From contig JBHLKM010000007.1 in NCBI GenBank assembly GCA_048886685.1, positions 32,001-96,000 on the forward strand: 64,000 nt of DNA, written 5' to 3'. The first letter of the stretch is position 1; each line of letters starts with the position of its first letter. Source of the DNA: Candidatus Hodarchaeota archaeon. Lineage in GTDB: Archaea > Asgardarchaeota > Lokiarchaeia > Sigyniarchaeales > SOKP01. The notes under the pieces are model-generated. The model searched no databases. It was not told the DNA's origin and saw only the letters and a list, made by a program, of their open reading frames with translations. This document shows positions 17,653-35,804 of this stretch, in pieces. The translations under genes and the position numbers were made by a program.

Positions 17653-17994
17653 ATGGAACCACTTCAAAAAATAGAGGAAGAAGCCCAGGCAATAACCGAC
17701 ACACAGAGGAGTCAAATTTATGAGTTTGCCCGCGAAGTCAGTAAGGACACCTTAGAGGAAGTCTGTCCAGCACTGCTCAACATAGCCATTGAATCAGAAA
17801 GGGGGTTGCTCAAAAACCAGCTAGGGAACGTGATATTCCACCTTCAAAAAAACGAGCGCATCAACACGGTCATTGGTTTACAAAAGCTCATTGATGCGGC
17901 ATTAATAGTCAATCCTGAGGCAATGTTCAAGATTTTCGAGGAATCGGATACGGATGCCCAAGCTCTCGGCAAAAAAATAAAAGCAGTATTATAA
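17653..17994 (+). CDS. Helical hypothetical protein (113 aa)
   Basis: Clean ORF; diverged fragments of homologs at 19441 and 27689 keep the amino-acid sequence, which supports coding. Confidence 0.85.
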   Translation: MEPLQKIEEEAQAITDTQRSQIYEFAREVSKDTLEEVCPALLNIAIESERGLLKNQLGNVIFHLQKNERINTVIGLQKLIDAALIVNPEAMFKIFEESDTDAQALGKKIKAVL

Positions 17995-18001
17995 TTTTTT
18001 T

Positions 18002-18399
18002 TCACTCACCTATCTTCATTATATTAAGCTCTGTTATTGCAGATTGAGATTTAAAAAAATCCATATAAATACCTCCCCAAGTAAATCCTTGAATTGAACA
18101 CCTAGGCAATTTGTATACGATCCCTTCTGGTCCTAACATCACAAAAGATACTCCTATTCTCAGAAGTCCAAGAATTAAATAGTATAGAGTAAAACCACCA
18201 GAGACTACCATACAAGTACTAAGAATAATTACCCTATATTCCGGAATAAAAATTGACAATATTATTCCAAATATTAACCCGAAAATTAATATATAGCATT
18301 TATGATATCTTCAGGAGAAGATATCATCCCAAATTCATAGTTTCCTTCTTGATAGTTATGAAATTGCAATAGGTACTCCTCTAAATTTTCTATACTCAT
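18002..18399 (-). pseudogene. Frameshifted and probably truncated membrane-protein gene
   Basis: ATG 18399 frame (MSIENLEEYLLQF...) stops near 18286; a shifted frame continues CYILIFGLIFGIILSIFIPEY... into the 85-aa ORF. Confidence 0.55.
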
Positions 18400-18656
18400 T
18401 TAACCCTCTATATTTATTTTATCCCATCAGATTATTATTCTATACTACTGTTATTATTTCTTCAATATTTAACATTTCTGTAAGAAAAAAATCCAATTTT
18501 ATAACTTTAATTTCTGATGGAGCTTTTTAGCCGCATTTTCGTCATTTTTGTCACTACAAAAGATTTGGGAAAGTTAGAAGTCCAAGTAAAAAATTAAAGC
18601 CCTAAAAAAATAATAATAAAATCTTTTTGTTCATATATTATTAATAGGGCATTATC

Positions 18657-19388
18657 ATGACTATAAGAAAGCTTATAAAAAATGTTTTAGAAAGAGTTAT
18701 AAAAATATTTAGTATTTTTGTACTTTATAGTTCTGTCTTAGTAGGAATCCTCGCTCCAATGTTACTTATTGTCGGAGGTTTCTTCAAATTTCTTGATCAC
18801 TTTCATTGGATTTCTTGGTTTTTTGCAGATCCAACAACTTATTCAAAAGATCTTATAGTTTGTTGGTTGAATTCAGTTTTACATTGCTCTTTTTTTTACT
18901 CAGATACCTGGGTGTATTTAAACGTAATGATATTTGTAGCGGGTCTTATTCTTTTCATTATTTCTTTGGCATGTCTAGTAATTGGAATTAGAAAGAATGC
19001 GGGGTTAGTACAAGAGAGAATATATAAACATATAAGACATCCTCAAAATTTCTCTATTATTATTATGGCTTTTCCATTATTCTTTTATCGATATGGATTT
19101 AGGTTAGGAGATTTTATCTCATGGATTCAATTTATATTCCTAATAATTATCTATTCTGATCTTGGAGATATTAAATTAAAAAAGAAGTATCCAGAAGAGT
19201 TCCAATCATACTATGAAAATACTGGTTTTTTTCTTCCCAGGATTTTCCCTTATCGAATTAGCTATTATTTCTCTGCCATCTATAACAAAAAGTATCGATA
19301 TCCATTTCTACTTCTAATTTATATCCTAACTATTTATGTACTCTATCAACTTTTTTTGATTTTACCATTTTATTGGGCAACAATATAA
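18657..19388 (+). CDS. ICMT/PEMT-like integral membrane methyltransferase family protein
   Basis: GLVQERIYKHIRHPQ and KKYPEEFQSY...GFFLP motifs, multiple TM segments. Confidence 0.8.
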   Translation: MTIRKLIKNVLERVIKIFSIFVLYSSVLVGILAPMLLIVGGFFKFLDHFHWISWFFADPTTYSKDLIVCWLNSVLHCSFFYSDTWVYLNVMIFVAGLILFIISLACLVIGIRKNAGLVQERIYKHIRHPQNFSIIIMAFPLFFYRYGFRLGDFISWIQFIFLIIIYSDLGDIKLKKKYPEEFQSYYENTGFFLPRIFPYRISYYFSAIYNKKYRYPFLLLIYILTIYVLYQLFLILPFYWATI

Positions 19389-19440
19389 ATAAACTTCTCT
19401 TTAATGATTCATAAAGACATTGAGAATCAATGACAATCCT

Positions 19441-19482
19441 GATGCCCAGCAACTCGCCAAAAAAATAAAGGCAGTATTATAA
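19441..19482 (+). repeat. Orphan copy of the 3' end of gene 17653..17994
   Basis: 36/42 nt identical to 17953-17994; DAQQLAKKIKAVL* vs DAQALGKKIKAVL*; T-tract also shared. Confidence 0.85.
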
Positions 19483-19526
19483 GTTTTTTTCATTCTTATT
19501 TTAATTCAGTCAAATTGATCGAGTTT

Positions 19527-19615
19527 ACTTTTAAGACAATCGGAATTTTAGGGTTCTTTCCCCACACGTTCTTGTTTTCCAGGATATTATTTTTCATGAG
19601 ATTTTATATCTTCTA
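19527..19615. repeat. Direct repeat of 20068..20160 (3' end plus downstream flank of gene 20132..20719)
   Basis: ~90-bp near-identical copies: ACTTTTAAGACAATCGGAATTTTAGGGTTCTTTC...CCAGGATATTATTTTTCATGAGATTTT. Confidence 0.9.
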
Positions 19616-19705
19616 ACTTAAGATTATAGCTGAATCCATCCCAAATATCCGGATCAAAACTATTTTAAATTAATCTATTATCTTTTACTAATAACGAACT
19701 TCTAT

Positions 19706-20059
19706 TTGTGTCTTATGTTTTTCTTAAATTCATATAGCTATCATATACCACAACAAATTCTTGGTTTTCTCATAGTTTTTGGAATCCCATTGTTGATCCT
19801 TTTTGAATTATACTTCACAAAAATACGGAAAATAAAACAGGTCAAGATAATATTTGGAGTTGTTTCGATCATTTATGGTTCAGTTATTATCATCATAGCA
19901 ATATGGGGAAATATAGAATTTACAAAATATTTAGAAAATAGGGAGTATTCTATACTAGGGCCCGATTATCGCTTTATTTTTATTTTATGTATCGGACTTT
20001 TTATAATCTTAGTCATACGTGGAATGATTTTAATTAATAAGAGCAAGTATGTTGAATAA
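19706..20059 (+). CDS. Small 3-TM membrane protein, paralog of 33562..33924
   Basis: Three hydrophobic segments; shared MFxLNxYxYxIP...AIWG...YLE...DY pattern. Confidence 0.75.
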   Translation: MCLMFFLNSYSYHIPQQILGFLIVFGIPLLILFELYFTKIRKIKQVKIIFGVVSIIYGSVIIIIAIWGNIEFTKYLENREYSILGPDYRFIFILCIGLFIILVIRGMILINKSKYVE

Positions 20060-20131
20060 AATAACCAACTTTTAAGACAATCGGAATTTTAGGGTTCTTT
20101 CTCCACACGTAAGATCTTGTTTCCCAGGATA

Positions 20132-20719
20132 TTATTTTTCATGAGATTTTTTATCTTCTAGTAGTTTTACTGCTTTTCTTCCTAGGTTGTACGCTTTTAA
20201 CAATTCATCTTTTTTTTCTAATATTTTTCCTTTTTGATAACAAGCAGGGACACAGATATCCCCAATATAATTTCCTCTAAGAACTTGAATTGTTAATTTC
20301 ATTGGTTCAGTGATAAAACGACTATGCTCATAATCATCCCTACCAAACGTACATAATATTATGTGCCCTTTACTATTAAATCTATCAGCATAACGAGGAT
20401 TATTAAAATATGAAGAAAACCTATCAATAAAACATTTCATTTGTGCGGAAACACCATGCCAATAGAGAGGACTTGCCCAGATGATGAGATCAGATTCTAA
20501 AAATTTATTTAGAAGTTGGGGGTAATCATCATCTGCCCGTAAATCTTCTCTGTTTCGACTATCATCGACTACCTCACCGATAGGTCTTATGTGAAAATCA
20601 TCTAAATAGATTTTATCAACCAAAGCTCCTACTGATTTTGCTCCCTTTAAAACTTCATCTGCCAATAAATCCGAGTTCCCTTTTTTTCTAGGACTTCCTA
20701 ATAATGCTAAAACTTGCAT
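20132..20719 (-). CDS. Flavodoxin-like NADPH-dependent FMN reductase lacking the Fe-S Cys motif
   Basis: GSPRKKGNS, SPLYW, AQMKCFIDR. Confidence 0.88.
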   Translation of the reverse strand: MQVLALLGSPRKKGNSDLLADEVLKGAKSVGALVDKIYLDDFHIRPIGEVVDDSRNREDLRADDDYPQLLNKFLESDLIIWASPLYWHGVSAQMKCFIDRFSSYFNNPRYADRFNSKGHIILCTFGRDDYEHSRFITEPMKLTIQVLRGNYIGDICVPACYQKGKILEKKDELLKAYNLGRKAVKLLEDKKSHEK

Positions 20720-21166
20720 AATAATAGCAATAATATGAAAGTTGTTTTAGATTTTATCATTATTTAGGAAATAGGATATACATTATTGATGTTATCTCAG
20801 TTAGTTTGTAAAACAAACTATAATAGCTATCTTAATTTTATGATCTTCTCTTTAATATGCCTATTAATCCACCTAGAATATCATACTATATAAAAAAAAA
20901 AGATTTAGGAAAGTTAGATTTCTTTCATAATTTTTTATGGATTTTTTGTAAGAAAGTCTTTTGTTATAGTCAAGTTCTGATTTTGAGAAAGGAATTAGAC
21001 TCCAATAGTATTCTAAGATCTAGTAAAAGGGTCATTAATAGGGCGATCAGAATCGAAGAGATAATGTGAACTTTTAAATAATTATACTAAATTAAATAGA
21101 TTACTGGAATTAAATAATATGCAAATTAAATAGAATGTAATAATTAAATAGAGGTTAATATTTGTT

Positions 21167-22048
21167 ATGGGAAGACTTAATGAAAAAGTTGCGGTGATTA
21201 CTGGGGGCTCAAGTGGTATAGGGAAAGCGACTGTTGAGCTCTTCATTAAAGAGGGTGCTCGCGTTGTGTTTGGTGATATTCTTGATCAGCAAGGAAAAGA
21301 GATTGCTGAAAAACTTGGGGATAATGCTTCTTATATCCATACGAATGTAAGATTCGAGTCCGACATTAAAGCTTTATTAGACCTTGCTGTTAATAAATAT
21401 GGGAGAATTGATATCTTATATAATAATGCGGGTTTTGGGGGTGCATTAGGATTAATTGAGAATATTCCAACCGATGCATTTGATGTAACAATGGAGGTTT
21501 TATTCCGAAGTGTATTTTTGGGAATAAAGCTTGTAACCCCAATCATGAAGGAACAAGGTTCAGGAAGTATAATAAGTACGTCCAGCGTAGCTGGTATGCA
21601 TGGAGAAGGGCTTCACATATATAGTTCAGCAAAAGCGGCGATTATTCAATTTACGCGTTCTGTTGCAAAAGAACTTGGTGAATATGGCATTCGTGTAAAT
21701 TGTATTTGTCCAGGCGTTATCGCAACCCCTATATTTGGAAAAGCATTTGGACTCCCCCAAGATCAGGCGGAAAGGATGGCTGAAATGATTAAGGCTATGC
21801 CAACAGAAAACCAACCTATAAATCGTAGAGGAATTCCTGAAGATATAGCTAAAGCAGCTTTATGGCTTGCAAGTGAAGATTCTGGATTTGTAACGGGGCA
21901 TGCATTGATAGTTGATGGAGGGCTTTTGGGGGGCCCAAAATACTCAAAATCTATTGAAAGTTATGAAATGATCGCAAAAACCCTAAAATTGGGAGATTTA
22001 GAGGACATTTTCAATAAAGTAAACGAAAGAATCGCTGAAAGTAAATAG
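21167..22048 (+). CDS. Short-chain dehydrogenase/reductase
   Basis: TGGSSGIG, NNAG, YSSAK, VNCICPG. Confidence 0.93.
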   Translation: MGRLNEKVAVITGGSSGIGKATVELFIKEGARVVFGDILDQQGKEIAEKLGDNASYIHTNVRFESDIKALLDLAVNKYGRIDILYNNAGFGGALGLIENIPTDAFDVTMEVLFRSVFLGIKLVTPIMKEQGSGSIISTSSVAGMHGEGLHIYSSAKAAIIQFTRSVAKELGEYGIRVNCICPGVIATPIFGKAFGLPQDQAERMAEMIKAMPTENQPINRRGIPEDIAKAALWLASEDSGFVTGHALIVDGGLLGGPKYSKSIESYEMIAKTLKLGDLEDIFNKVNERIAESK

Positions 22049-22251
22049 CACATAAAATTATAATATTTTTTTCACTCTTATTTTATCTCAATCGATTCTT
22101 AAATCGGCGCAAAACTAAAAGTCGGGTGAATATTGAAGAAAAACAACGTATTGATCTTGACTACTGATACTTTAAATCATAGATATCTTCAATTTTCTCA
22201 TAGAAAAAATCATAAATATACTAATATTTTTAACATTAAATTGTCAAAGAA

Positions 22252-23847
22252 TTGATGGAAAAAATGAGTAATTCAGTTATTAAAACTGTTGATTTATTTT
22301 ATAATCCAAAGTCAGTTGCAGTAATTGGTGCTTCGAAGGTTCCAATGAAAGGTGGGAACCGTATAGTTAAAAATCTATATAGAAATGGCTACAAAGGTCA
22401 GATTTATCCTGTTAATCCCAACTATAATGAAGAAGATGAACTATGTGGTTTCCAATTTTATAAAACTGTTTTAGATATAAAAGGGGAGGTAGATCTTGCC
22501 ATTTTTTATGTAAACAATCGTATTGCAACTAATATTCTTAAAGATTGTGTTAAGAAAGGAATAAAAGCGGCAATAATCCAAAGCGCTGGTTTTGAGGAAG
22601 TGGGGGTAGAAGGGTTAAAATTAAGGGATGAAATTGCTGCTATTACAGAAAATTTCTCTAAATTACGTATTATTGGTCCTAATTGTATGGGAATCAGTCG
22701 CTTCGATGGGGATTATGATGATAAAAAAGGAGGTTTCTTCACTGGACAATTTACTCTTAGGAATTACAAAAGAGGTAATGTGGCGATCATCACCCAGAGT
22801 GGTTTCTTGAATGGAGGAATAGCGCCACTGATTTTTCGTCAGTATCCAAATCTTGGATTTAGGTACATCATTTCAATTGGAAACAAGATGGACTTGGGAG
22901 AAAATGAATTTTTAGAATACATATTAGAAGATGATACTGTGAATGTCATTGCGATATATTTAGAGTCATTTAAAGACCCTAGAAAATTCATCTCTTTATG
23001 TAGAAAAGCAAAACAAATGCCTAAAAAAACTATTATCCTTGTAAAAGGTGGAAAAACAAGCCAAGGGATGAAAGCAGCTTCTAGCCACACAGGTGCTTTA
23101 GCTGAAGATGAAAGACTAATTGACGCTATTATAAAACAAGCAGGAGTTATTCAAGCAAATAATTTTTTTGAAATGTTCCAATTTCTAAGAACATTTTCCA
23201 TGATGTATAAATCCGGTAAAAAATTCCCTAAGAAAGGAAATATCGCTCTTGTTGTTGGGAGTGGAGGTATGGGAACTGTAATGGGGGATGTTGCTATGAA
23301 ATATGGTTTAAAGTTCCCTGAATTTGGTGAGAATAGTTATAACATTCTTAAAAGTGTATTCCCTGATTGGATGCCTCCAAACCGATTTGCTCTCGTTGAT
23401 TCTTGGCCTACAATGGAAAAAGCAATGATGGATGCAGCTAAAAAAGCCAAAAGTACTACTAAAAAATCACCGAATAAGACTACTACAAATGAAAAAGAAA
23501 TGAATCCATTTCGTATGATGGGTTCTTTTGGAAATGTTATGGACGTAATTCAAAGAGCCGTTTTAGAAGAACCTAAAATAGAAGGATTGTTCACATCAAT
23601 GCCAGGTGGTCCAAGAGGACGTGAAGGAACAATGGGTTTTATGACACCGATGCTTGAACGCATAGCAAAATACCCGAAACCCGTTTTCTTTTATTCAGTA
23701 ATGGAAAGTGAGGAATCTTTGGAGATGTTACGGTTGTATGGCAAGTATAATATTCCTTTTTTTAACAGAACTGAAGATGTTGCCAAGAATTTTGCGATTT
23801 TGGTCCAAGAAACAAAGATTAAAGAAAGATTTTTAAAAACATTTTAA
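22252..23847 (+). CDS. ADP-forming acyl-CoA synthetase alpha-type (CoA-binding) protein
   Basis: SVAVIGAS, IYPVNP, IIGPNCMG, TQSG, AASSHTGAL. Confidence 0.9.
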   Translation: MMEKMSNSVIKTVDLFYNPKSVAVIGASKVPMKGGNRIVKNLYRNGYKGQIYPVNPNYNEEDELCGFQFYKTVLDIKGEVDLAIFYVNNRIATNILKDCVKKGIKAAIIQSAGFEEVGVEGLKLRDEIAAITENFSKLRIIGPNCMGISRFDGDYDDKKGGFFTGQFTLRNYKRGNVAIITQSGFLNGGIAPLIFRQYPNLGFRYIISIGNKMDLGENEFLEYILEDDTVNVIAIYLESFKDPRKFISLCRKAKQMPKKTIILVKGGKTSQGMKAASSHTGALAEDERLIDAIIKQAGVIQANNFFEMFQFLRTFSMMYKSGKKFPKKGNIALVVGSGGMGTVMGDVAMKYGLKFPEFGENSYNILKSVFPDWMPPNRFALVDSWPTMEKAMMDAAKKAKSTTKKSPNKTTTNEKEMNPFRMMGSFGNVMDVIQRAVLEEPKIEGLFTSMPGGPRGREGTMGFMTPMLERIAKYPKPVFFYSVMESEESLEMLRLYGKYNIPFFNRTEDVAKNFAILVQETKIKERFLKTF

Positions 23848-23957
23848 CCTTTGGAATGGTGCTTGTACTTAGTTATCTTATTTGGTTCGGAATCCATTCC
23901 AACAAGCTATTTATTTCACAAAAAATATTTTCGAATATAAAAAATATATAATTGAGG

Positions 23958-24071
23958 AAAATTTTAGTTATAAGTTTAATAATTCAATAAATTGCTTTAC
24001 TCCTCGATTTGGATCATATTGCATATGTGGATTGGTAGAACTAGATATAATGAAAGTATTTTCAGGAAATC
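23958..24071 (-). repeat. Orphan copy of the 3' end of gene 27865..29040
   Basis: 105/114 nt identical to 27855-27968; encodes ...PHMQYDPNRGVKQFIELLNL* vs PHMYYDPNRGVKQFIELLKL*. Confidence 0.92.
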
Positions 24072-24130
24072 CATTATATAGACTATGTCTATAAAGATAG
24101 ATTTAAATATCTAATTTAGTAATAATAAAA

Positions 24131-24625
24131 TTGAGGATCGAAATGAAATACTTACATTCAGTAGCTATAATTGGTCTTATAGGGAGTTTATTATTAATAT
24201 ATGGTTTTTTTGCTTTATTAAATTACATCTTTGAATATGCGACAATTTTAAGTGGATTTGGTTTGACATATCAAATTATTAGCTCAGATCTTCTAACATT
24301 TTTTATTTTAAATGCCATATTGCAATTGATTTTTGGAATAATTGCGTTGATTTCTTCAATATTTGTGATTAAAGAAAAGAAAATAGGTGTTTACATTTTA
24401 TTTTGTATTGGTATTATTACTTCAATATTTATGTTTATAGTTATCTATCCACGTCAAGAATATATGTTATCACCAGATATAACATTAATTATTGGACCTA
24501 TACGATTATTATCTAATCATACAATTGATATTACTCCTTTTATTATTCTAATTGCTGGATTATTACCCTTTATCCTTAAATCTGATGAGTGGGTAATTAT
24601 CAACAAAGACAAAAAGATTAGTTAA
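24131..24625 (+). CDS. Hypothetical multi-pass membrane protein
   Basis: Four hydrophobic segments; clean ORF. Confidence 0.7.
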   Translation: MRIEMKYLHSVAIIGLIGSLLLIYGFFALLNYIFEYATILSGFGLTYQIISSDLLTFFILNAILQLIFGIIALISSIFVIKEKKIGVYILFCIGIITSIFMFIVIYPRQEYMLSPDITLIIGPIRLLSNHTIDITPFIILIAGLLPFILKSDEWVIINKDKKIS

Positions 24626-24815
24626 TGTCTAATAGTTTAATAGTCTAATAGTGGTTTTAATTTTTCTTGGAATAATAACATTGGTAGTTGTCTTACTTTT
24701 TGCTCCCGGTAGAAGTGAAAAAATTTTTGGTATTCTAACTTTTCTTGCTGTACTTCTTATAGTTATTCCCTTTTTCATCTTTATGTTATTTTATCAAAAG
24801 ATAAGATCTAGTTAA
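24625..24815 (+). pseudogene. Small 2-TM protein gene frameshifted by an 8-bp duplication (or translated from GTG 24651)
   Basis: Removing CTAATAGT at 24645-24652 joins ATG 24625 (TAATG overlap) to an open frame: MSNSLIVVLIFLGIITLVVVLLFAPGRSEKIFGILTFLAVLLIVIPFFIFMLFYQKIRSS*. Confidence 0.55.
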
Positions 24816-25005
24816 TTTTATTTAATTTAATCAACGTTTTTTTGCTGTTTTTTCCTTAATTATCTATACTATAAAATTGATATAGAGAGTATCAAATTCG
24901 AACATCAACTGTTTTGATTTGTAAGATTTAAATTGAATGGAACTTATAGGAAGTAAAGCATAACACTCTCTATAATCCAATGGTATATATAGAGATCAGA
25001 AAAAA

Positions 25006-26094
25006 ATGAAAGAGAATAAAGTTATTACTGATATAGAGCAGCTAACCCCGGAATGGTTGACGAATATCTTCAAGAATAAGGGTTACCTTAGCCAAGGAAA
25101 AGTTACAAAAATAATTAAGAAAAAATCGCAAGAAACCATTACTTCTTTTGTGTATTTCTTAGAGCTAAACTTTTCAACTGATGCTCAGACAGAACCACCT
25201 TCTCGTGAATTAGTTGTAAAAATTTCAAAACACAATGATGAGTTCAAAATTTACGGGAGACAAGAAGCTAAATTTTATAATATCATAGCTGAAAACATGA
25301 TTGAAATGCCAATTCCAACTTGCTATGATGCGGTATTTTCTGAAGAAACTGGTTTGTCTCATATTATCCTTGAAAATATATCGAAGACCCATGAAACATT
25401 GTTGAACTTTCCTTTTGGACCACCTCCTTCAAAACAACATTTTGAAAAAGCGATTGATAGTTTAGCAGAAATTCATGCTTTTTGGTGGGATCATAAAAAC
25501 CTTAAGGAATTATCTAAACAATCAAGAGGACCTCTTTCTCTTTTTTTAACAAGAGTAAGAAAAGAGGCACTTCAACGTTTTTTAGAAGACGTTGGAGATA
25601 AAATGAGTGATAACAGAAAATCACTATTGAAGAAAATATTTTCATTATATCCCCAAGCAGTAGATGAGCGAATCGCAAAAAAAAATCTAACTATAATACA
25701 TACTGACGCTCATTTAGGGCAATTTTTTTATCCAAAAAATAATGATAATGAAAAGTATAAAGCGATACTAAGTGATTGGCAAGGTTGGAATATCGGTGTA
25801 GGAGGTCTAGATCTAGCATATATGATTGGGCTTTTTTTATCCCCCGAAAACAGACGTTTAATGGAAAAAAAACTTATCAAACGTTATCATAGCCATCTTA
25901 TTAAGTTGGGCATAAAAAACTATAACTGGGATAAGTGTTGGTATGATTACAAATTATTTACATTTTTAAACATTTACCACTGTATCTGGTGGTGGAATGT
26001 GGGTATGGTTTCTTCTTCCTTCTTCTGGGCTAGATTAGAAACATCCATTGCTACCATAGAAGATTTAAATTGTATGGAACTTTTAGAAAGCTGA
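25006..26094 (+). CDS. APH/choline-kinase-like (EcKL) phosphotransferase
   Basis: LVVK, EAKFY, LAEIHAFWW, IIHTDAHLGQ (Brenner-like), LSDWQ, DLAY. Confidence 0.85.
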   Translation: MKENKVITDIEQLTPEWLTNIFKNKGYLSQGKVTKIIKKKSQETITSFVYFLELNFSTDAQTEPPSRELVVKISKHNDEFKIYGRQEAKFYNIIAENMIEMPIPTCYDAVFSEETGLSHIILENISKTHETLLNFPFGPPPSKQHFEKAIDSLAEIHAFWWDHKNLKELSKQSRGPLSLFLTRVRKEALQRFLEDVGDKMSDNRKSLLKKIFSLYPQAVDERIAKKNLTIIHTDAHLGQFFYPKNNDNEKYKAILSDWQGWNIGVGGLDLAYMIGLFLSPENRRLMEKKLIKRYHSHLIKLGIKNYNWDKCWYDYKLFTFLNIYHCIWWWNVGMVSSSFFWARLETSIATIEDLNCMELLES

Positions 26095-26248
26095 AGTACC
26101 TTTAAGAACTGAAAGAACAAAGTCATAACAGTTTCATAATCCCAATTTTTTAGGTTATTAAGAGTCTATTTTTAATAGTTCTATAAGCATACTTATATAA
26201 ATGCTTTGAAAAAAACAACATTTATTTGATGAATAATTATATTTTATT

Positions 26249-27568
26249 TTATACTTGTTTTCGGATTAAATATTTTCTAAGGTATACTAGAGAAATCACG
26301 ATTATTAGGATATGTAGAATATAAATATTTCCTAATGAAATGGTTAGTCTATCCCCATTGCCATCTTCAAATAATTCAACACGAGATAAGAAATATACCG
26401 AATTGTCTGGAGAATAAGTTCCAGCAACAATATTATTACCATCAGACGAAATTGCTACTTTAGATACAGCATATCCGGTTTGGTAACTCCACAATGGTAC
26501 AGAACTAGAATTTTCGAAAAAGGAGATCTTATTTTTCTCATAGCCTGCTATTAAATAAGTACCATTTGAAGATATCGCAACTGAATTTACATTATTATCC
26601 ATTTCAGGAGTTTCATAGCTCCATAGGTGTGTTTTTGGTAAAGTTGTTGAATTATCAAACAAATAAATTGTACTTTGTAAAGTACCAGCAATTATATAGT
26701 TATTATCGGATGATATAGCTATTGTTTGTACACTTGGGGTGGGAGTATTATAGCTCCATAAAGGAGTGGAACTATCTTTTTGAAAAAGATAGACATGAGA
26801 ATCTAGAGTTCCTGCTGCAATATTATTACCATTTGCCGAAATCGATACAGAATAAACCCATGATCCAGTATGGTTATTCTATATTGGCAATTTAGGAGTA
26901 GAAATCGAATTATTGAATAGGTATACGTATGAGTCATAACCTCCTGCTACAATATAATTTCCATCAGCCGAAATTGATACCGAATTTGGAGTATCAGATC
27001 TTAAAAAGTTCCACATAGGTGTTTTTGGTGTTGTAATTGAATTATTAAATAGATAAATTTTATTATCACCACCTGCTACTGCTATATATTTTCCATCCGA
27101 AGAAATAGCTACATCTTGTACTACTTTAATCGCTGTTTGATAACTCCATAGTGGGGTTTTTAGGGTTGCAACTGATTTGTTAAATAAATAGATTTTACCT
27201 ATACTAGACCCCGCTACAATATAATTCCCATTTGAAGATATCGCAACTGTCTGAACATTATTCCCTGTATTATAGCTCCATAATGGTGTTGAATTTGAAT
27301 TCTCGAAAAAGTAAACCTTATCATCATTGCTACCTGCTACAAGATACTTCCCATCGGAAGATATATCTACTGACCATATTGCCCCTTCTGATCTATAAAT
27401 CCATGCTAAATTAGTTCCTGAACTCTGTGGATGAATATTATATCTATCATTTATTTTTCTGGAAATTTCACTCTCTTTGAGAAAATTGAATGTTGTCTGA
27501 ATGCTTATTAAAAATGTAAAAATAAATATGAACTTAATAATTATTATTTTTTTTCTCATTGTTACCAA
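26249..27568 (-). pseudogene. Membrane-anchored WD40-like beta-propeller gene with one in-frame TAG
   Basis: Repeats V.ISSDG.Y.VAG...YLF...PLW; both listed ORFs share one frame and are separated only by TAG at 26879-26881 where Trp is expected; N- and C-terminal TM segments. Confidence 0.85.
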
Positions 27569-27688
27569 TCTAGAATTAGTTTGTCTGATAAATAATGTAC
27601 AAAAATTGTCTTTAGGTTAAGATTTATTTAATCAAATACATAAGCTTTCTGCTAAAATATTTAGATTTAAAACTTTCTTATTTGAAAA

Positions 27689-27799
27689 ATGGAATCACTC
27701 TATAAAATAGAGGAAGAGGCCATAGGAATAACAGATTCGTAACGAGCTCAAATTTACGAGTTTGCCAGGTCAGTTAGTAAAGAAGTCCTGGAAGAGGTG
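27689..27799 (+). pseudogene. 5' fragment of a homolog of the 113-aa gene (17653)
   Basis: MESLYKIEEEAIGITDS*RAQIYEFARSVSKEVLEEV vs MEPLQKIEEEAQAITDTQRSQIYEFAREVSKDTLEEV (27/37 identical, internal TAA). Confidence 0.88.
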
Positions 27800-27864
27800 T
27801 ACTATTTATTTTGTAAAAACAATTTCCAAGTAAAAAAAAAATAAATAATTCAGAAAAATTTTAG

Positions 27865-29040
27865 TTATAATTTTAATAATTCAATAAATTGTTTTACTCC
27901 TCGATTTGGATCATAATACATATGTGGAGTGGCAGAACTTGGTATAATGGAAGTATTTTCAGGAAATCTTCCCGTGAAATTAACAATAATACTTTTAGAT
28001 TTGATACTTTTTGTAGAATTAATGGCTCCGATGAAAGCAATCAACCCACTTTTTTCAAGTTCAAAAAATTTTAAACCTAATTCAATGGTAGGATACACTC
28101 TCGCGTTGACCAATTCTCTAATTATATTTTCCTTATGATTGAGGATATCCTTGTTTGAAACCTGTGATGTGAGAATTCTTCCACCGTCTTTTCTCCAACG
28201 GACAAATCTTTCTATAGCATATATAGGTTTAGAACTTCCTAATGTAGTTTCAATATCCGAAGTTTCATATGTCCTTTCCTTAAATACATCTAAAGGATTA
28301 TTACCCATGGAGTGCTCATTTAAAGCATCAACAATAGGCGTTGATACATTACTTACTGGTTGAACCACTAAAATCTCGGGACTTAAATTCACTTGCGAAG
28401 CATATTCAATGAATCCTATTGGACCTACACCTCCAGATACAGTCTGGACATAACATATATCATTATTTAATAGATTCATATGATCTAATACAAAACCAAT
28501 TTGACCATATGCAGCTGTTTTTAGATTTGCATCAGCTAGAACAACCTTATATGATTTTGACATCTCTTTCATGAGTTTTGTGGCAAAATTTCTTATATTA
28601 TCTAGTGATGAATTTCTTAAGATAATATATTTCACATAAGGATTGTTTTCAATTACACTTTGAGATACTTTGAAAGAAGAGATTTCAGGAACCAACAAAA
28701 TTCCTTTGATTTCCTTCTTTGATTCAATATTATACTTTTTTAGTGATCTCGCCAGAGATTCAACTGTATTTCCAGATGAAGTTGAGATTATATAGTCAAT
28801 TTCATTCTTATCATATACATGAAGTAAATACTGACAATCGACGTCTTTAAAAGTTGGTGTACTCCAGCATATACAAAATACTTTTTTATTAGGTATTAAC
28901 TCAGGGATATATCTAACAGATATAGGTATGATTGGAAAATATTCGGATTGGATCTTCCTTCCTGTCAATTTAAAATAAATGTTATCACTAAATTTCCAAT
29001 TATTTCCTCCAATATAACTTGAAGAAATTGTATTTGTCAT
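27865..29040 (-). CDS. Fold-type II PLP-dependent enzyme (threonine synthase/dehydratase-like), divergent
   Basis: TPTFKD (PLP Lys), SSGNT, VSGGVG phosphate loop, VNFTG. Confidence 0.75.
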   Translation of the reverse strand: MTNTISSSYIGGNNWKFSDNIYFKLTGRKIQSEYFPIIPISVRYIPELIPNKKVFCICWSTPTFKDVDCQYLLHVYDKNEIDYIISTSSGNTVESLARSLKKYNIESKKEIKGILLVPEISSFKVSQSVIENNPYVKYIILRNSSLDNIRNFATKLMKEMSKSYKVVLADANLKTAAYGQIGFVLDHMNLLNNDICYVQTVSGGVGPIGFIEYASQVNLSPEILVVQPVSNVSTPIVDALNEHSMGNNPLDVFKERTYETSDIETTLGSSKPIYAIERFVRWRKDGGRILTSQVSNKDILNHKENIIRELVNARVYPTIELGLKFFELEKSGLIAFIGAINSTKSIKSKSIIVNFTGRFPENTSIIPSSATPHMYYDPNRGVKQFIELLKL

Positions 29041-29058: not shown

Positions 29059-29229
29059 TTAAGGATTGTTACACCACAAAGGTTCTTTTGGAGGGAGAAT
29101 ATCTTCACATTTTTCTTTCACATCACAATCTCGACAGATAGTTGAAATACTTCTAAAATTTCCATAACACGATGGTAAAATTATTATAATCGAGACATAA
29201 TTATCGGATTTAATCTCATTTTTGCTCAT
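29059..29229 (-). CDS. Small Cys-rich protein (56 aa), not in the ORF track
   Basis: AGGAG RBS upstream; MSKNEIKSDNYVSIIIILPSCYGNFRSISTICRDCDVKEKCEDILPPKEPLWCNNP*. Confidence 0.6.
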   Translation of the reverse strand: MSKNEIKSDNYVSIIIILPSCYGNFRSISTICRDCDVKEKCEDILPPKEPLWCNNP

Positions 29230-29362
29230 TTAAGTTTTCTCCTAAATTTTTTGATGGATGTAATACTCATTGAAAATAGTGACACAAATATTTAAAGTTT
29301 ATGATGCATTATGACATAATTAATGACATAAAATTATTTTCAAGTCAAAAAAAGGTGTTTGA

Positions 29363-29938: not shown

Positions 29939-29968
29939 TAAATTCTCTTTATAGTTATCTTAAAGATA

Positions 29969-30880
29969 TTAAAATGAGGAGGCTATCTCTTCCATAAAGG
30001 TCTCCTTTTCATCTTTGAATCCAGTTATGACAAAAATGAATTGTTTACAGCCCAAGTCAACATACTCTTGTAATACATTGATACAGTTGTCATACGTACA
30101 ATAAATGCCCTTTTCCACCCCCAAAGCACTAATTTTCTTATTTAAATCTATTTTATTCTTTCCAATCAAAAAGTTCCCACTCCAGGATAATTCAATATCT
30201 TCTATTTTCCGTTCGAGTATATCACAGTATTCTTGTAGAATGTGTACCTTTCTTTTGTATTCTTCGATTGAAGCACCCCATCTGTCCCAGATATTTCCTA
30301 TTTCAGCTGCGACCTTTAGCGTATATTTTTCTCCACCCCCTCCAATCATGATCGGAGGATGCGGTTTTTGTAAGGGCTTTGGTTTACAGATTGCTTCCTT
30401 TGCTTCATAGAATTCTCCTTGAAAACTCGTACTTTCTTCAGTCCAGAGCTTTTTTATGAGAGTTATCCCTTCTCTCATTTGATTCACTCTAGTAACTGGG
30501 TCTCTGAACGAAAATCCATAAGCCTTGTATTCCTCCTCCTTCCAACCAGCGCCATAGCCAAATATTAACCTTCCTTTGGAGATAACATCAATTGTGGCTG
30601 CAATTTTAGCAGTTAGTGTAGGACTTCTAAAAGAATTACACGCTACCAAAGGTCCAAGTTTGATTGATTTTGTTTCCACTGCTAACGCAGATAGCAGTGT
30701 CCATGCCTCGAAAACACTTCCCTCATTAAAAGGGCCCCACATAAAGTGATCCATAGCCCAAAGAGAATCATAACCCAATCTTTCACATTCCTGTGCCATT
30801 TTTCTAACGGAATTGTAATCAGACCTATACAACATATCCGGTGTGGCATTTATAGTCACTCCAAACTTGATTTTACTCAT
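29969..30880 (-). CDS. LLM-class (likely F420-dependent) flavin oxidoreductase
   Basis: GYDSLWAMDH, ISKGRLIFGYGAGW, PKPLQKPHPPIMIGGGGEK. Confidence 0.92.
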   Translation of the reverse strand: MSKIKFGVTINATPDMLYRSDYNSVRKMAQECERLGYDSLWAMDHFMWGPFNEGSVFEAWTLLSALAVETKSIKLGPLVACNSFRSPTLTAKIAATIDVISKGRLIFGYGAGWKEEEYKAYGFSFRDPVTRVNQMREGITLIKKLWTEESTSFQGEFYEAKEAICKPKPLQKPHPPIMIGGGGEKYTLKVAAEIGNIWDRWGASIEEYKRKVHILQEYCDILERKIEDIELSWSGNFLIGKNKIDLNKKISALGVEKGIYCTYDNCINVLQEYVDLGCKQFIFVITGFKDEKETFMEEIASSF

Positions 30881-31021
30881 AATAAACCATCCTCGAATAA
30901 ATATGATAATTTATATTATTATAAACAATTTAATCAATTTATAATACAAAAAAAACTATTTTTTTTAGAGTTTAAAGAAGTAAATTATCAGCTTTACAGT
31001 AGCAATAATATTGTTTTATTT

Positions 31022-32452
31022 TTATTTATAATTTTTATAACGATATAAATTCGAAAAAGCTTTAGCTGCCCTTGAAAAGCTGCGGAATCCAGGTATTTCC
31101 AATTCAATTAACTTTTTTTTAAAATCTTTACCGATTGAATTAGGAATATTTAACATGAAGGGTTTTCTCAATTTATCGCATATTTCTTTGTATCTAATTA
31201 ATTCTGCATAAAACTTTTTTAATCTTTCTTCATCTTGATCTATTCCTCTCCATCTAGGTCCTGGATTAAGTTGAATAACACCTGATATATACTCTTCACT
31301 AATAGCTAGTTTGAACAATTCATATCGGATTTCTTCATCTCTAAGATCCGGAAGATCTAAAGGATTTGTTATAGAACCTACTCTGATTAATTTTTTCATT
31401 TTGGAACGAGTGGGTTCTCGAATTTCAGGAACATCTATTCCAACATTCAAACGAGCAATTGAATCTACGCCTAACACTGAAGATCCTCCACTATAAGTTA
31501 TCATAAGTATACTATTATGTTTTGGTTCACAATTGGGACAAAATCTAAACAATACCGCAGTGTCTATTAATTCATCGTATGATATTATTTGGATCGCATT
31601 TGTTTGTTTGAATATGGAATTCCATATTTTATTTTGTGATGCTAAGGATCCTGTATGACTACTCGCTGCTCTTTTTCCTAACTCTGAAATTCCACCTTTC
31701 AATAGAAGTAATGGTTTCTTATTCTTCTTCAATGAATCGAAAAAAATTCTGCCCTCAAATTCAGGTGTTCGAAATTGAGAAAAACCTTCCATATAAGATA
31801 AAATAACTTCTGTATGTTCGTCTTTATTATAGTAATCGATTAAATCTGAAGATCTAAGAGAAATAGAGTTGCCTATACTCGCCGCATAAGAAAAATAAAC
31901 GCCTCTGTTATTTAGACTAGAAACAATCCGATTAGTAAGATCCCCACTCTGTGAAACTAAGGCAAAATTACCTGCTTTTTCACTAAAACGTTCGCTATAT
32001 GAGAATTTTCCCCTTGGACTGTAAATTCCCATGCAGTTTGGACCCACAAGTCGACTATTTTCGTTGTTTTTGAATAGTTCATATAATTCTGCTTCAATTT
32101 TAATTCCTTTCTCATCGAATTCACCAGTTCCTGCGGAGAATACATGAATTGTATAAAATTTCTTTTCTAAACATGTCTTTATAGTTTTTATTAATCTATT
32201 TCTGTTAACCGAAATTAAACTGTGGTCTATTTCATCAGGAATCTCTGAAAGATCTCTGTAAACATTCACACCTTTTAATCGTTCTGCGTGTTTTTCCATT
32301 AATTTGTCATAGTAATTTGTAACAATATAGAGAGAATCTTTTGGAAATCTATCTATGTAACCATCTATATGCCAAATTCTTCTTGGATTGGCACCTATAA
32401 ACGCAAGTGTTTTTGGATAGAACAATTTCTCGAAAAAGTCAATTTGTTTCAA
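31022..32452 (-). CDS. ADP-forming acyl-CoA synthetase alpha-type (CoA-binding) protein
   Basis: LVGPNCMG, VSQSG, AASSHTGSL, NPLDL. Confidence 0.88.
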   Translation of the reverse strand: MKQIDFFEKLFYPKTLAFIGANPRRIWHIDGYIDRFPKDSLYIVTNYYDKLMEKHAERLKGVNVYRDLSEIPDEIDHSLISVNRNRLIKTIKTCLEKKFYTIHVFSAGTGEFDEKGIKIEAELYELFKNNENSRLVGPNCMGIYSPRGKFSYSERFSEKAGNFALVSQSGDLTNRIVSSLNNRGVYFSYAASIGNSISLRSSDLIDYYNKDEHTEVILSYMEGFSQFRTPEFEGRIFFDSLKKNKKPLLLLKGGISELGKRAASSHTGSLASQNKIWNSIFKQTNAIQIISYDELIDTAVLFRFCPNCEPKHNSILMITYSGGSSVLGVDSIARLNVGIDVPEIREPTRSKMKKLIRVGSITNPLDLPDLRDEEIRYELFKLAISEEYISGVIQLNPGPRWRGIDQDEERLKKFYAELIRYKEICDKLRKPFMLNIPNSIGKDFKKKLIELEIPGFRSFSRAAKAFSNLYRYKNYK

Positions 32453-32649
32453 TATACCACCTTAAAAACATCAAATAAATTATCCAATTAAAACATTATT
32501 TTATTCTTTTAATCAAAAGTAAAGGATATTAAATTTTTAATACTAAAATTTGGAAGATGAGGTTTTTTCCTGAATTTCATTTTTTTTTTCTAAAATATTA
32601 AATAATAAAATATAATCATTATCATAAACTAGCTCTGTGGGTATAAATT

Positions 32650-33522
32650 TTGAATTTAAATAAGAATCCAGGCATAGACTTAGTTGCTGATGAAAGGATT
32701 TGGAGTGAATCCGTATATGCTGATTGCGTTAGTTCTGATGGTCACACCGCTATTATGACAAGATTATGCCGTTATCCTGAATATTCTACTTCATGGCTTT
32801 GGGCTTTCTGTTTTTTAACTCAAGGAATTTATGGATATAATAACAATTACCTCCCATGCGATAATGAAATAAGTCTTGTTGAAGGTCCTGATTTAAATTA
32901 TATTCATTTAAGGCAAGAGAAAGCTAAATTTGAGCGATTTGGACCTCGAGATTCTCCTAATGGGGCTCAAGTTACAGTTGATATTAAGGCACATAAGGGT
33001 TCGAAGGTTCCTCAAAACTTAGGTCCTCTTAAAATGCAGATTAAAGCCGATATTACTCCTAAACATAAACCATGGAGATTGAACCGATATAGGACAGAGT
33101 GGATAAATGATGCTAAAATTGTGGTTAAAATTGATGATTTAGAGTTTAAATATAAAGGATCCGGCCATTGGCACGAACAGCATCAGAAAGCACCAAGATG
33201 GAAAATACAATTCACATATATTTCTCTTCGTGGCGATAATCTCTGTTTAATTGGTAGTGCAACAGAACCCAATGATGCTGGATTCGTTGTCAACTCATCC
33301 AAGCGTACAAAAATTACACAAATTAAGATTGATCCACCATCGACGATACGGAATATTAAAATAACGCTTGAAGATAATTCTACATTGAACGGTACGATTC
33401 ACACTATTTACAATTATCTAGTACCTATATATAATCAATTGCGACCAGGTACCATAGTAACTGCACAGTTCAAAAAAGAATTACTTTCTGGAGTTGTAAA
33501 TGATTGGTTAATAAACGATTAA
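32650..33522 (+). CDS. Hypothetical beta-rich protein (possibly AttH/tocopherol-cyclase-like fold)
   Basis: WSESVY, GSGHWHEQH motifs; the fold assignment is inference. Confidence 0.6.
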   Translation: MNLNKNPGIDLVADERIWSESVYADCVSSDGHTAIMTRLCRYPEYSTSWLWAFCFLTQGIYGYNNNYLPCDNEISLVEGPDLNYIHLRQEKAKFERFGPRDSPNGAQVTVDIKAHKGSKVPQNLGPLKMQIKADITPKHKPWRLNRYRTEWINDAKIVVKIDDLEFKYKGSGHWHEQHQKAPRWKIQFTYISLRGDNLCLIGSATEPNDAGFVVNSSKRTKITQIKIDPPSTIRNIKITLEDNSTLNGTIHTIYNYLVPIYNQLRPGTIVTAQFKKELLSGVVNDWLIND

Positions 33523-33561
33523 AAAATTTTAATTTAGAATTATAGGCATATAATTATTTTT

Positions 33562-33924
33562 TTGTTTCATATGTTCATCTTAAATCAATATGATTACATT
33601 ATACCACTTAGAATTCTTGGAATTCTTGCATTGATTGGAACTCCATTACTCCTTAGTGGAATATACCTTGCAAAACTAAGAAAAAAAAAGGAACTTATAC
33701 TAATGTTAGGATACATTTCGATCATTTTTGGGGCATTGTTTATTATTTTAGCTATATGGGGTGATATCTGCTGGAATCGGTATTTAGAAACTTGTAACCC
33801 CTGCATTTTGTTCGATTATACTCCAATTTTTTTATTGTTAATTATGCTAGGGATAATATTAATTATATATGCGATGTTTTTAATACATAATACGATAGTG
33901 GGAATAAGAGTTAATGAAAATTAA
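33562..33924 (+). CDS. Small 3-TM membrane protein, paralog of 19706..20059
   Basis: Colinear similarity including AIWG and YLE. Confidence 0.75.
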   Translation: MFHMFILNQYDYIIPLRILGILALIGTPLLLSGIYLAKLRKKKELILMLGYISIIFGALFIILAIWGDICWNRYLETCNPCILFDYTPIFLLLIMLGIILIIYAMFLIHNTIVGIRVNEN

Positions 33925-33931
33925 TGAATCG

Positions 33932-34072
33932 ATGAAAGAATTGAAAAATCTATATCCATTGACCTTGGTTAATACAACTAATAGATTTAGCCTAAAATGT
34001 CAATATTGTTTCCTTTTTCGGGAAGGTAATCCGAATAAAGGTTGTGTAAATGATTGGTATAAAATTAAATAA
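33932..34072 (+). pseudogene. Chimeric relic: 5' end of a radical SAM homolog fused to the 3' end of a 32650 homolog
   Basis: MKELKNLYPLTLVNTTNRFSLKCQYCFLFREGNPNK (25/36 identical to the 34881 N-terminus) + GCVNDWYKIK* (cf. GVVNDWLIND*, 14-nt exact core). Confidence 0.82.
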
Positions 34073-34129
34073 ATAATATGGAAACTAATATTGTTAATCT
34101 TGATATAATTATTAAATTATAATTATGAG

Positions 34130-34861
34130 TTGATCATGTCGTTTAAGGGAAAAGTTATAATAATAACAGGAGCAAGCGGAGGAATTGGAAGTGAAACTGC
34201 TCGATTATTTGCTAAAAATAGAGCCAATATTATTATTAATTACAACTCTTCTCCTGCTAAAGCAAAAAACACTTTAAACATGGTTAAAGACTTGGGAGTA
34301 GATGCGATAAATATTAAAGCGGATATTTCTAATACAAATGAAGTAAAAAATATGATTGATGAGACTATAAATAATTTTGGGAAAATAGATGTCTTAGTGA
34401 ATAATGCCTCTAAACATCCTCCTCCCTTATTTAACTTTCACAAACCTGATTGGGAATTATGGAAAAGGATGGTTCAAGTGAATGTTATGGGAATTTTAAT
34501 TTGTTCTCATTTTAGTTTTCCTTATTTGAAAGAAACTAATGGTAATATTGTCAATATAGTAATGGATTATGATCCAGGAGGATTAGGTTATGTGTTTACT
34601 AAAATGGCAGGAACTCCTCTGACTAGAGGATTAGCCAGAAAATTAGCACCAGTAAGAGTTAATGCTGTATCTCCCGGAGTGATTGAAACATGGGAAATGA
34701 GTGAAGAAGAGAAAAAGGATTGGTTAAAAACAATAATTATAAAAAGAATTGGTCAACCTATAGATATCGCAAGAGCTATCCTATTTTTGGCATCTGATGA
34801 GGCATCATACATTACAGGAGAAACTCTTCATGTAGATGGGGGACATCAATTATTAGTTTAA
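34130..34861 (+). CDS. Short-chain dehydrogenase/reductase
   Basis: TGASGGIG, VNNA, YVFTK, VNAVSPG, YITGETLHVDGG. Confidence 0.92.
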   Translation: MIMSFKGKVIIITGASGGIGSETARLFAKNRANIIINYNSSPAKAKNTLNMVKDLGVDAINIKADISNTNEVKNMIDETINNFGKIDVLVNNASKHPPPLFNFHKPDWELWKRMVQVNVMGILICSHFSFPYLKETNGNIVNIVMDYDPGGLGYVFTKMAGTPLTRGLARKLAPVRVNAVSPGVIETWEMSEEEKKDWLKTIIIKRIGQPIDIARAILFLASDEASYITGETLHVDGGHQLLV

Positions 34862-34880
34862 AATAAAATTAAAGGGAACC

Positions 34881-35804
34881 ATGAGAGAATTGAAAAAGTT
34901 ATTTCCATTGGCCTTGGTAAATATAACAAATAGATGTAACCTTAAATGTAAACATTGTTTTGTCTTTCGGGAAGGTAATCCTAATAGACCTACTGAGAAA
35001 AATGAAATGGAAACAGACTTAATGATAAAAGAAATAAAAAGCTATAAAAGTAGATATGGAATTTTCAGAATGCTTTGGATGGGAGGAGAACCACTTCTAA
35101 GAAAAGATGTGTTAAAACAAGGGGTCACACTTTTTCCCCAAAATGTTATTGCTACTAATGGAACATTACCACTAATCAATTTAGGTCCGAGTATTAAATG
35201 GACAATTTCAATAGATGGTCCTGAAGAAATAAACGATGAAATTAGGGGTAAAGGGAGCTTCGAAAGAGTGATTTACAATTTGAATAATTTACCTGAGGAT
35301 TTTACTGGAGATCTCCAATGTAATTGTGCAGTTACAAAATTGAATGAAGATTGTTTTGAAGAACTTATTAATGTCTTGCATAAAGAGACTCCAATAAGAG
35401 GTATAAACTTTAATTTTTATGTTCCGAAAGAACACGATACTTCCAAATTTGCTTGGAAATCTCTAATGGAGAGGGATTCTGCGGTGATTAAGATATTAAA
35501 ATTAAAAAAGAAATATCCTAAATTTATTCTTAATAATAAGATGGTACTTAAACTAATGCTATCTCAAAATGCAGCTGAAATAACAAAAGATTGCCCATTA
35601 AAAAAAATTATACTTCCCCTCTATTTAGGAGAAAATGGATTCGAAATTCCATTTTGTTGTTATGGGAACAATGTTAATTGTGATTTATGTGGATCTTGGG
35701 CAGTTTTTCATCTTGAATATATCAGGAGGTTAAATCCAGGATTTCCTTTTAAAATGACAGGAAACATTTTCAAAAAAGTGACACCTTCAGGATTTACATT
35801 ATAG
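34881..35804 (+). CDS. Radical SAM protein
   Basis: CNLKCKHC, GGEP, TNG, ISIDG, C-terminal CC...CDLC. Confidence 0.9.
   Translation: MRELKKLFPLALVNITNRCNLKCKHCFVFREGNPNRPTEKNEMETDLMIKEIKSYKSRYGIFRMLWMGGEPLLRKDVLKQGVTLFPQNVIATNGTLPLINLGPSIKWTISIDGPEEINDEIRGKGSFERVIYNLNNLPEDFTGDLQCNCAVTKLNEDCFEELINVLHKETPIRGINFNFYVPKEHDTSKFAWKSLMERDSAVIKILKLKKKYPKFILNNKMVLKLMLSQNAAEITKDCPLKKIILPLYLGENGFEIPFCCYGNNVNCDLCGSWAVFHLEYIRRLNPGFPFKMTGNIFKKVTPSGFTL

Follow-up and report, generated by a model that had tools for sequence, protein, structure and literature searches.

In bacteria, scars in which acquired DNA separates a live gene from a displaced copy of its own end are known from Rhs, contact-dependent growth inhibition (CDI) and type VI secretion system (T6SS) loci. 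For rhs genes, homologous recombination with circular intermediates is proposed in the account of Jackson et al. 2009 (PMC2935791), and homology-facilitated illegitimate recombination (HFIR) has been put forward by Kirchberger et al. 2017 (PMC5361080) for the T6SS effector-immunity modules that are sequentially displaced in Vibrio cholerae; once finished, the T6SS arrays spread by ordinary homologous recombination (PMC5361080). HFIR experiments have been carried out in Acinetobacter, Streptococcus pneumoniae and Pseudomonas stutzeri (Prudhomme 2002; Meier & Wackernagel 2003, both as summarized in PMC5361080), and the process is also reported in E. coli conjugation (PMC3240628). Here we describe scars of this type in an Asgard archaeon of the class Lokiarchaeia, a lineage in which their sighting is new; full-text literature searches found no Asgard description of them. 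The sequence studied, called the window, is a 64,000 nt stretch (C7:32001-96000) of the 4.42-Mb genome G000. It contains a variable island of ~18 kb (17995-35911) which, with a probability of about 0.6, was built by repeated additive recombination with DNA of related Lokiarchaeia, the gene-end relics within it being displacement scars.

The G000 assembly is a short-read-style metagenome-assembled genome (MAG) of 47 contigs (GC ~31%, completeness 100%, contamination 8.4%), in which scaffold gaps are written as 100 N. Repeats were detected by repeat search, pairwise alignment and self-BLAST in segments of 40 kb. For a genome-wide scan, ~3,730 ORF-based genes were called (86% coding), local self-BLAST was run across all contigs, and matches between a gene end and an intergenic copy were counted by orientation and by upstream or downstream position. 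Gene 17653 is referred to as G1, gene 20132 as G2 and gene 27865 as G3, and a second copy of G1 as G1'.

The original prediction named four sites (a to d) where a gene is followed by cargo and then by an orphan copy of its own 3' end. Alignment and self-BLAST located direct repeats at the places given for a, b and c (64–196 bits, E<=1e-3), all far beyond chance. Each unit spans the stop codon, with 29–104 nt of coding end and 13–64 nt of downstream flank, so the join on the cargo side does not lie just short of the gene end, as had been proposed. Across the 4.4-Mb genome each unit matches a single partner; a repeat family or miniature inverted-repeat transposable element was rejected because the units are unique pairs. 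Mismatches run along the full length of the copies at sites a, c and d2 (the last is described below).

Site a carries the clearest record of displacement. The two copies (17953-18007 and 19441-19495) are 85% identical over 55 nt and take in the final 42 nt of G1 and 13 nt of flank. Beyond the repeat, the flank of relic a matches, up to 19516 (at least 20 nt more), the DNA that follows G1 or G1' in three other species (G017, G011 and G003), whereas the flank of the live G1 differs from theirs and departs after 13 nt, exactly at the start of the cargo. Relic a, which carries the ancestral flank now absent behind the live gene, is therefore read as the old gene end in its old surroundings. The cargo gene 18657 shares 93–94% nucleotide identity with G017 and 83% with G018, and gives a weak NCBIfam match to isoprenylcysteine methyltransferase (E=2e-4).

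Site b lies only a short distance further on, with relics a and b 31 nt apart. Its copies (19527-19615 and 20068-20160) are 92% identical over 93 columns with a single 4-nt indel, on either side of which identity is 96–98% with exact runs of ~34 nt, and the unit comprises 64 nt of flank and the last 29 nt of G2. An AACTT, a possible microhomology, is common to the cargo and unit boundaries. The small cargo gene 19706 has no family match and is a paralog (48% aa identity) of gene 33562 near site d. G2 matches Pfam FMN_red (2.8e-20) and lacks an ortholog in all 29 genus genomes searched (best 35%), and alleles of it (77–87% aa identity) occur on metagenome contigs L065-L068 in different downstream contexts; on a JGI contig, the orphan end of a convergent neighbor lies directly behind the G2 allele. 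Judged by their layout, relics a and b together look like the former convergent junction of G1 and G2, with cargo inserted on both sides.

At site c (23907-24071 and 27802-27968; 86% over 167 nt) the repeat had been predicted correctly but is longer than the 23958-24071 first given, and consists of 63 nt of flank and the last 104 nt of G3, with no indel in the coding part. G3 (Pfam PALP, under cut-off) is syntenic with gene 29498 in at least eight genus genomes, its downstream neighbor being different in each, and genes 22252 and 27865, which flank the site, are adjacent in no relative searched. Part of the DNA between the copies, a WD40 gene, is 86% identical to and syntenic with G017, where the WD40 gene is followed at the equivalent place by a G1' that retains its 3' part. 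In the window, only the start of this G1' is left (relic e); it stops at 27800 and unit c begins at 27802, which indicates that the block starting with unit c was joined into G1'. Coordinates of all features are collected in the table below.

Table. Features of the island and its borders (window positions).
Feature	Position	Strand	Description
G1	17653..17994	+	113 aa, conserved left anchor, recurrent insertion hotspot
Live unit a	17953..18007	+	flank homology to relatives ends at 18007, where cargo starts
Cargo a	18008..19440		doubtful 85-aa ORF 18002-18259(-) and membrane protein gene 18657-19388(+)
Relic a	19441..19516	+	displaced old G1 3' end with ancestral downstream flank
Relic b	19527..19615	-	displaced flank and last ~25 nt of gene 20132
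Cargo b	19616..20067	+	small 4-helix membrane protein gene 19706-20059, between both copies
G2 and live unit b	20068..20719	-	gene 20132-20719, FMN-reductase/flavodoxin-like; live unit 20068-20160
Relic c	23907..24071	-	displaced flank and gene 27865 end; 60 nt behind gene 22252 stop
DNA between c copies	24072..27685		membrane gene 24131, relic f, kinase-like gene 25006, broken WD40 gene 26249-27568
Relic f	24923..24953		matches 26060-26090, 3' end of kinase gene 25006; sits upstream of 25006
Relic e	27686..27800	+	remnant (aa 1-37) of a second, dead G1 (G1'); 73% in tblastn over 37 aa
G3 and live unit c	27802..29040	-	gene 27865-29040, PLP-dependent-enzyme-like; live unit 27802-27968
Membrane protein gene	33562..33924	+	paralog of 19706; part of the putative incoming block at site d
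Relic d2	33913..34037	+	orphan 5' end (19 nt upstream and first 106 nt), diverged radical-SAM allele
Possible relic d	34043..34074	+	last ~30 nt of gene 32650, in-frame fusion behind relic d2; weak
Resident block	34114..37258		SDR 34130, radical SAM 34881, MBL-fold gene 35912 (right anchor)

Site d did not hold up as first described. The proposed repeat (33493-33527 and 34043-34074) reaches 76% over ~33 nt, near chance level, and is not reported by BLAST; a 22-nt pattern with three mismatches has an expected 0.04 chance occurrences in the window, a figure for a pattern made after inspecting both copies. Weak alone, the site is plausible only through its context. The robust repeat at this place is d2, in which the orphan matches the 5' end of the radical-SAM gene 34881 (34862-34986) at 82% over 122 nt without indels; compared with radical-SAM orthologs from other Promethearchaeia MAGs, it is 72–80% identical to their 5' ends. 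Positions 34114-35816 are colinear with contig L080 of another Promethearchaeia MAG (85.5% nt identity), where the block is followed by the 35912 ortholog (85% aa identity) and has no relic upstream, the homology to the window starting at 34114. Conservation in L080 identifies the order SDR, radical SAM, 35912 as the resident arrangement, and the SDR gene 34130 between the d2 copies as an old resident rather than cargo. Relic d2 belongs to the left-hand block, which stops within a diverged radical-SAM allele. Should the weak relic d be genuine, the site would read 32650, membrane gene, radSAM' / 32650', SDR, radSAM, i.e., two alleles of one interval in series. Across the junction runs a chimeric 46-codon frame (33932-34072) of 37 radical-SAM N-terminal codons and ~9 codons resembling the C-terminus of gene 32650, then a stop; this frame is a by-product of the junction.

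Genome-wide, 27 pairs of a gene end and an intergenic copy were found, all 27 direct and none inverted, as predicted for displaced ends. Since local repeats are 88% direct in general (0.88^27 = 0.03), orientation alone is modest evidence. Position is more telling: 14 of the pairs involve orphan 3' ends, and 13 of these are found on the downstream side of the live gene, separated from it by unrelated genes (binomial p=0.0018), a pattern that, together with the direct orientation and the lack of a nearby recombinase, agrees with the predicted insertion scars. The units are 37–223 nt long, affect at least 14 different target genes and have no common motif. At ten other sites the cargo genes are ordinary ones, including saccharopine dehydrogenase, beta-lactamase fold, B12-binding, Ras-like GTPase, DUF72 and methyltransferase genes, among others. 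An arrangement A-X-B'/A'-Y-B with both relics robust is present at C4:240688-240889, and this layout, like that of d/d2, corresponds to two alleles of one interval set end to end. With five of the 27 pairs plus relic f falling within these 18 kb, the window is a hotspot and atypical of the genome; ~14–21 scars in ~3,700 genes, concentrated in hotspots, do not show this to be a dominant route of gene acquisition, as had been envisaged.

The prediction that the copies diverged like alleles is supported by codon position. Among 311 differences between orphan and live ends (22 relics, from G000 and relatives), codon positions 1, 2 and 3 account for 80, 66 and 165, a third-position share of 53% (chi-square p=1e-12), and at one C19 site the counts are 1:0:12 with no indel. 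For 15 functional gene pairs of the same island the share is 57%, and 56% in the last 150 nt. The closeness of these values indicates that most of the divergence arose while both ends belonged to working genes.

Relatives of G000 carry similar scars. In five genomes G1 is followed by differing cargo and then by orphan copies of its end that point the same way as the live gene: G000, G016 (two, in a genome with three G1 copies), G002, G001 and G007. The genome G031, a single contig from another genus of the same order, has no Ns in its first 400 kb and contains three clean downstream orphan 3' ends there (55–157 nt, 92–93% identity, one to three genes between copies), and G005, of the same genus as G000, gave two small cases in 400 kb with 3,300 Ns. 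Two regions of G031 (C1:125000-137700 and 163400-174800; L166 and L168) also hold large arrays of direct repeats with a period of ~75 nt.

The island is bordered by two conserved anchors, G1 on the left and gene 35912 on the right. G1, which has no Pfam, NCBIfam or PHROG family and is single-copy in G000 apart from its relics, adjoins the ortholog of gene 16783 at 15/15 genus loci inspected, and the DNA after it is different at each. In G022 one 386-aa gene stands alone between G1 and the 35912 ortholog. The closest relative, G017, has a G1' with a damaged 5' end, flanked by an intact WD40 gene (456 aa) on one side and by the 35912 ortholog on the other. The right anchor is 1.6 kb from G1 or G1' in these two genomes, and the layouts indicate that the entire 17995-35911 is material inserted between two anchors. 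The domains recognized in island genes are all ordinary ones: FMN reductase, two SDR, two CoA-ligase-like, kinase-like, WD40, PLP-enzyme-like, luciferase-like and radical SAM. Family profile searches detected no integrase or transposase domain in any island gene, and PHROG searches no viral signal, which gives no support to a viral or defence-related origin for the small proteins encoded there. Rfam gave no match in 16000-37500 up to E=0.1 and no tRNA was found in 10000-42000; an RNA-gene or tRNA target was rejected, given no Rfam match and no tRNA across the island.

Best matches of island genes are found in different species and on different contigs. Gene 22252 is 90% identical (nt) to G011, yet G1 only 75%; gene 24131 is 90–91% identical to G013, yet G3 only 73%. 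Genes 27865 and 29498 are ~80% identical to G003, gene 31022 is 84% identical to G003, and genes 34130, 34881 and 35912 together match contig L080 at 85.5%. The discordance between cargo, at 90–94% to other species, and anchors, at 73–79%, indicates recent exchange among species.

A dedicated recombinase was not found. G000 encodes a single tyrosine recombinase (the sole PF00589 match, 315 aa, on C2), which is conserved in relatives and is for this reason called XerA-like, and family searches of G000 returned no DDE_Tnp_1 match, no serine recombinase and no TnpB above cut-off. There is likewise no tyrosine recombinase on the G1-island contigs of five relatives, no recombinase in the cargo proteins examined and, among the repeats listed, no inverted-repeat pair framing cargo. 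The description of these events as enzyme-free is sound to this extent and no further. MAG assembly under-recovers insertion sequences (IS) at contig breaks, so that the absence of transposase is a weak negative.

Several known kinds of element and process were rejected. An integrase-borne island with attL/attR would require an integrase in or beside the element, and none was found; a transposon or IS would require a transposase, and the units (variable and diverged) are not fixed-length target duplications; an integron-like cassette array lacks both an IntI integrase and a recurring attC-like site, its would-be units being unique pairs. The defining traits of the aloposons of Heimdallarchaeia, giant genes in tandem and tRNA targets (PMC8813620), are both missing here. 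A whole-contig strain duplicate does not fit, as C7 shares only single-gene paralogs (70–87%) with other contigs. Retroposition of transcripts was considered since homology to relatives ends tightly at single genes, and was ruled out because some units reach 44–47 nt beyond the start codon into upstream DNA and, in several cargos, both strands carry genes.

Recombination of the following kind would account for the scars. An incoming fragment would share a gene with the resident chromosome and bring different neighbors. On one side it would pair homologously inside the shared gene, and on the other it would be joined illegitimately a few tens of bases short of the end of that gene; alternatively, a circularized fragment could enter by a single crossover and give the same product. 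The live gene would keep a complete end, now donor-derived and followed by the new genes, and the old end with its old flank would be pushed outward and decay. HFIR and single crossover of a circular intermediate give the same outcome, and sequence alone cannot separate them. We infer the order of events and the donor side, and likewise the molecular pathway (strand exchange of RadA type plus end joining) and the entry of DNA.

The evidence against this reading is best weighed together with the rival explanations. Neither DNA uptake nor cell fusion is known from these organisms. The relatives yielded no empty or donor allele for b, c or d, and no event could be reconstructed from both parents, so that the predicted comparison with sister genomes succeeded only for relic a. 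It is unlikely, in our estimate, that the relics are in-place copies, produced by local duplication and decay or by insertion with a long staggered target duplication, even though tandem and closely spaced paralogs abound in Lokiarchaeia (255 direct gene-internal pairs here; PMC13247210) and truncated copies of 240–750 nt grade into the short relics, for which BLAST detection is moreover biased towards young examples. Orphaning is not limited to 3' ends: there are 13 orphan 5' ends, ~7 of them with at least 25 coding nt, which split 3:4 by position, and four of these seven have the geometry of decayed duplicates. Relic f fits the same geometry and relic e is the remnant of a G1 copy mostly kept in G017 (G016, too, has several copies); both are better read as decayed duplicates, and together with the four 5' ends they mean that more than one process leaves gene fragments here. 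Flank and coding parts of the units have also diverged alike (12.2% and 12.4%), which speaks for duplication. That process should, however, yield 3' orphans on either side in a ratio of ~1:1 rather than the 13:1 observed, and what lies between the copies shows no relation to what comes after the second one, leaving no tandem unit. An in-place copy decaying neutrally beside a constrained live gene would show a third-position share of ~42%, an estimate from assumed rates; the observed share lies ~3.9 SD above it and 0.9 below the functional value. Target duplication, for its part, cannot yield the A-X-B'/A'-Y-B layouts, and neither version explains cargo genes with foreign affinities.

An artefact of assembly, in which contigs or graph paths of co-occurring strains or species were joined and two haplotypes now stand in series, is very improbable. 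The contaminated, gapped nature of this MAG speaks for it, as do the many species in the genus (52 in the collection) and the A-X-B'/A'-Y-B layouts, which are what end-to-end haplotype contigs would produce. No Ns occur at any junction in the window, however, although gaps are written out in this assembly, and genes are intact at all junctions; chimeric joins at shared k-mers would leave the shared sequence unduplicated. Orphan G1 ends recur in four other, independently assembled species, a similar orphan is present in the JGI metagenome contig, the order WD40 then G1' is common to G017, and the three clean cases in G031 come from gap-free sequence. Also improbable, if less so, is an unrecognized recombinase acting in trans that would move cassettes in the manner of an integron or mobilizable island, with the repeats as equivalents of attL/attR. 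Integration at gene 3' ends with partial duplication is a classic integrase signature, one-gene cargos are frequent, two cargo genes (19706 and 33562) are paralogous, the G1 end has been hit repeatedly across species, and many Asgard proteins have no known function. Such an enzyme would have to act on the many targets described above without a shared motif, and on units that are unique pairs, vary in length and boundaries, and differ throughout with no exact core; no cargo or island encodes a recombinase and the genome has only the XerA-like one. Additive recombination with related DNA remains the reading we favour for the island.

A number of side observations concern the genes of the island and its surroundings. 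Immediately to its left, the TPR gene 14721-16684 (604 aa) has four paralogs elsewhere in G000 (C19:27898-29848, C20:776-2639, C2:402749-403172 and C19:88253-89518; 77–85% nt identity), the first of which abuts a further orphan gene-end site (C19:29899-30017). A motif consisting of a T-run followed by CACTCTTATTTTA occurs right behind the stop codons of several genes, at 22058-22092, 17995-18007 and 19483-19516, and also on C11 and C3, and may be a terminator-type signal. The WD40 gene 26249-27568 is interrupted, giving ORFs of 137 and 229 aa, and its repeat units continue through the gap; the G017 ortholog is a single 456-aa ORF (L018 2183-3553). The island copy is probably a gene in decay. 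The intergenic segment 24816-24946 (131 nt), whose last 24 nt overlap relic f, is 86% identical to intergenic DNA of species G067 (L075 3973-4103), far above the neighboring non-coding DNA. Rfam gave no match for this segment, which could represent either a small RNA gene or a further gene-end relic.

In the same species, an orphan 5' fragment of a 31022 homolog (L075 885-1037 on G067:C4; aa 4-54, 75%) lies ~5.7 kb from an ortholog of gene 29969 (84% aa identity), pointing to related island modules and relics in another species. The CoA-ligase-like gene 31022 (31025-32516) itself has a paralog of 87% nt identity at C23:37056-38547, on a contig that carries two orphan 3'-end sites, and this copy reflects either recent duplication, transfer, or a second strain in the bin. 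The G011 counterpart of the kinase-like gene 25006 (L038 7013-8080; G011:C46:111004-112076) is 85% identical over the first 195 nt and 74% at the end, with no DNA-level match reported in the middle, which suggests a mosaic formed by intragenic recombination.

Asgard genomes are large and have been shaped by transfer and duplication (PMC13247210). The scars described here are a countable, sequence-level footprint of one route of gene entry and, with closed genomes or long-read population data, could give the rate of gene gain without mobile enzymes, its hotspots (such as the G1 end) and the donors. In the family searches of G000, the classical vehicles of gene entry, integrases and insertion sequences, appear to be nearly missing. 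A wider proposal, which is tentative and on balance doubtful, is that in Lokiarchaeia integrase-free additive recombination at gene ends is a pervasive, order-wide means of gaining and reshuffling single genes through exchange of chromosomal DNA between cells. If true, related cells would exchange DNA by fusion or uptake, and these encounters would end in the unequal or illegitimate joining of homologous chromosomes, i.e., a eukaryote-like remodelling of genomes in the closest archaeal relatives of eukaryotes.

Compared with known systems, the scars resemble the attL/attR of integrases that target the 3' ends of tRNA or protein genes, where direct repeats of the end likewise surround the insert and the gene stays intact; here, however, there is no integrase and no exact core, the targets are many and the cargo can be as small as 452 bp. 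Experimental HFIR, as far as the sources cited at the outset summarize it, similarly gains foreign DNA through one homologous and one illegitimate end, but those are laboratory events with known parents, whereas only products are seen here and the end of the anchor is duplicated. Experimental HFIR usually deletes recipient DNA. We know of no DNA-uptake route in Lokiarchaeia. The T6SS arrays of V. cholerae have in common with the island a conserved upstream anchor, an illegitimate non-homologous join, old genes moved downstream and no integrase (PMC5361080); they differ in that Vibrio is naturally competent and the modules are conflict genes (PMC5361080), whereas the cargo here is housekeeping-like (reductases, kinase-like and membrane proteins) and 5' ends are displaced too. 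The rhs arrays, in the account of Jackson et al., likewise run from a live gene through acquired DNA to old 3' ends that were displaced without a change of orientation; serial events stack several orphan ends there (PMC2935791), as at G1 in G016. The rhs tips differ in function, being toxin domains accompanied by their immunity genes and subject to diversifying selection (PMC2935791), whereas the Asgard scars consist of near-synonymous ends of ordinary genes, displaced as relics of 37–223 nt.

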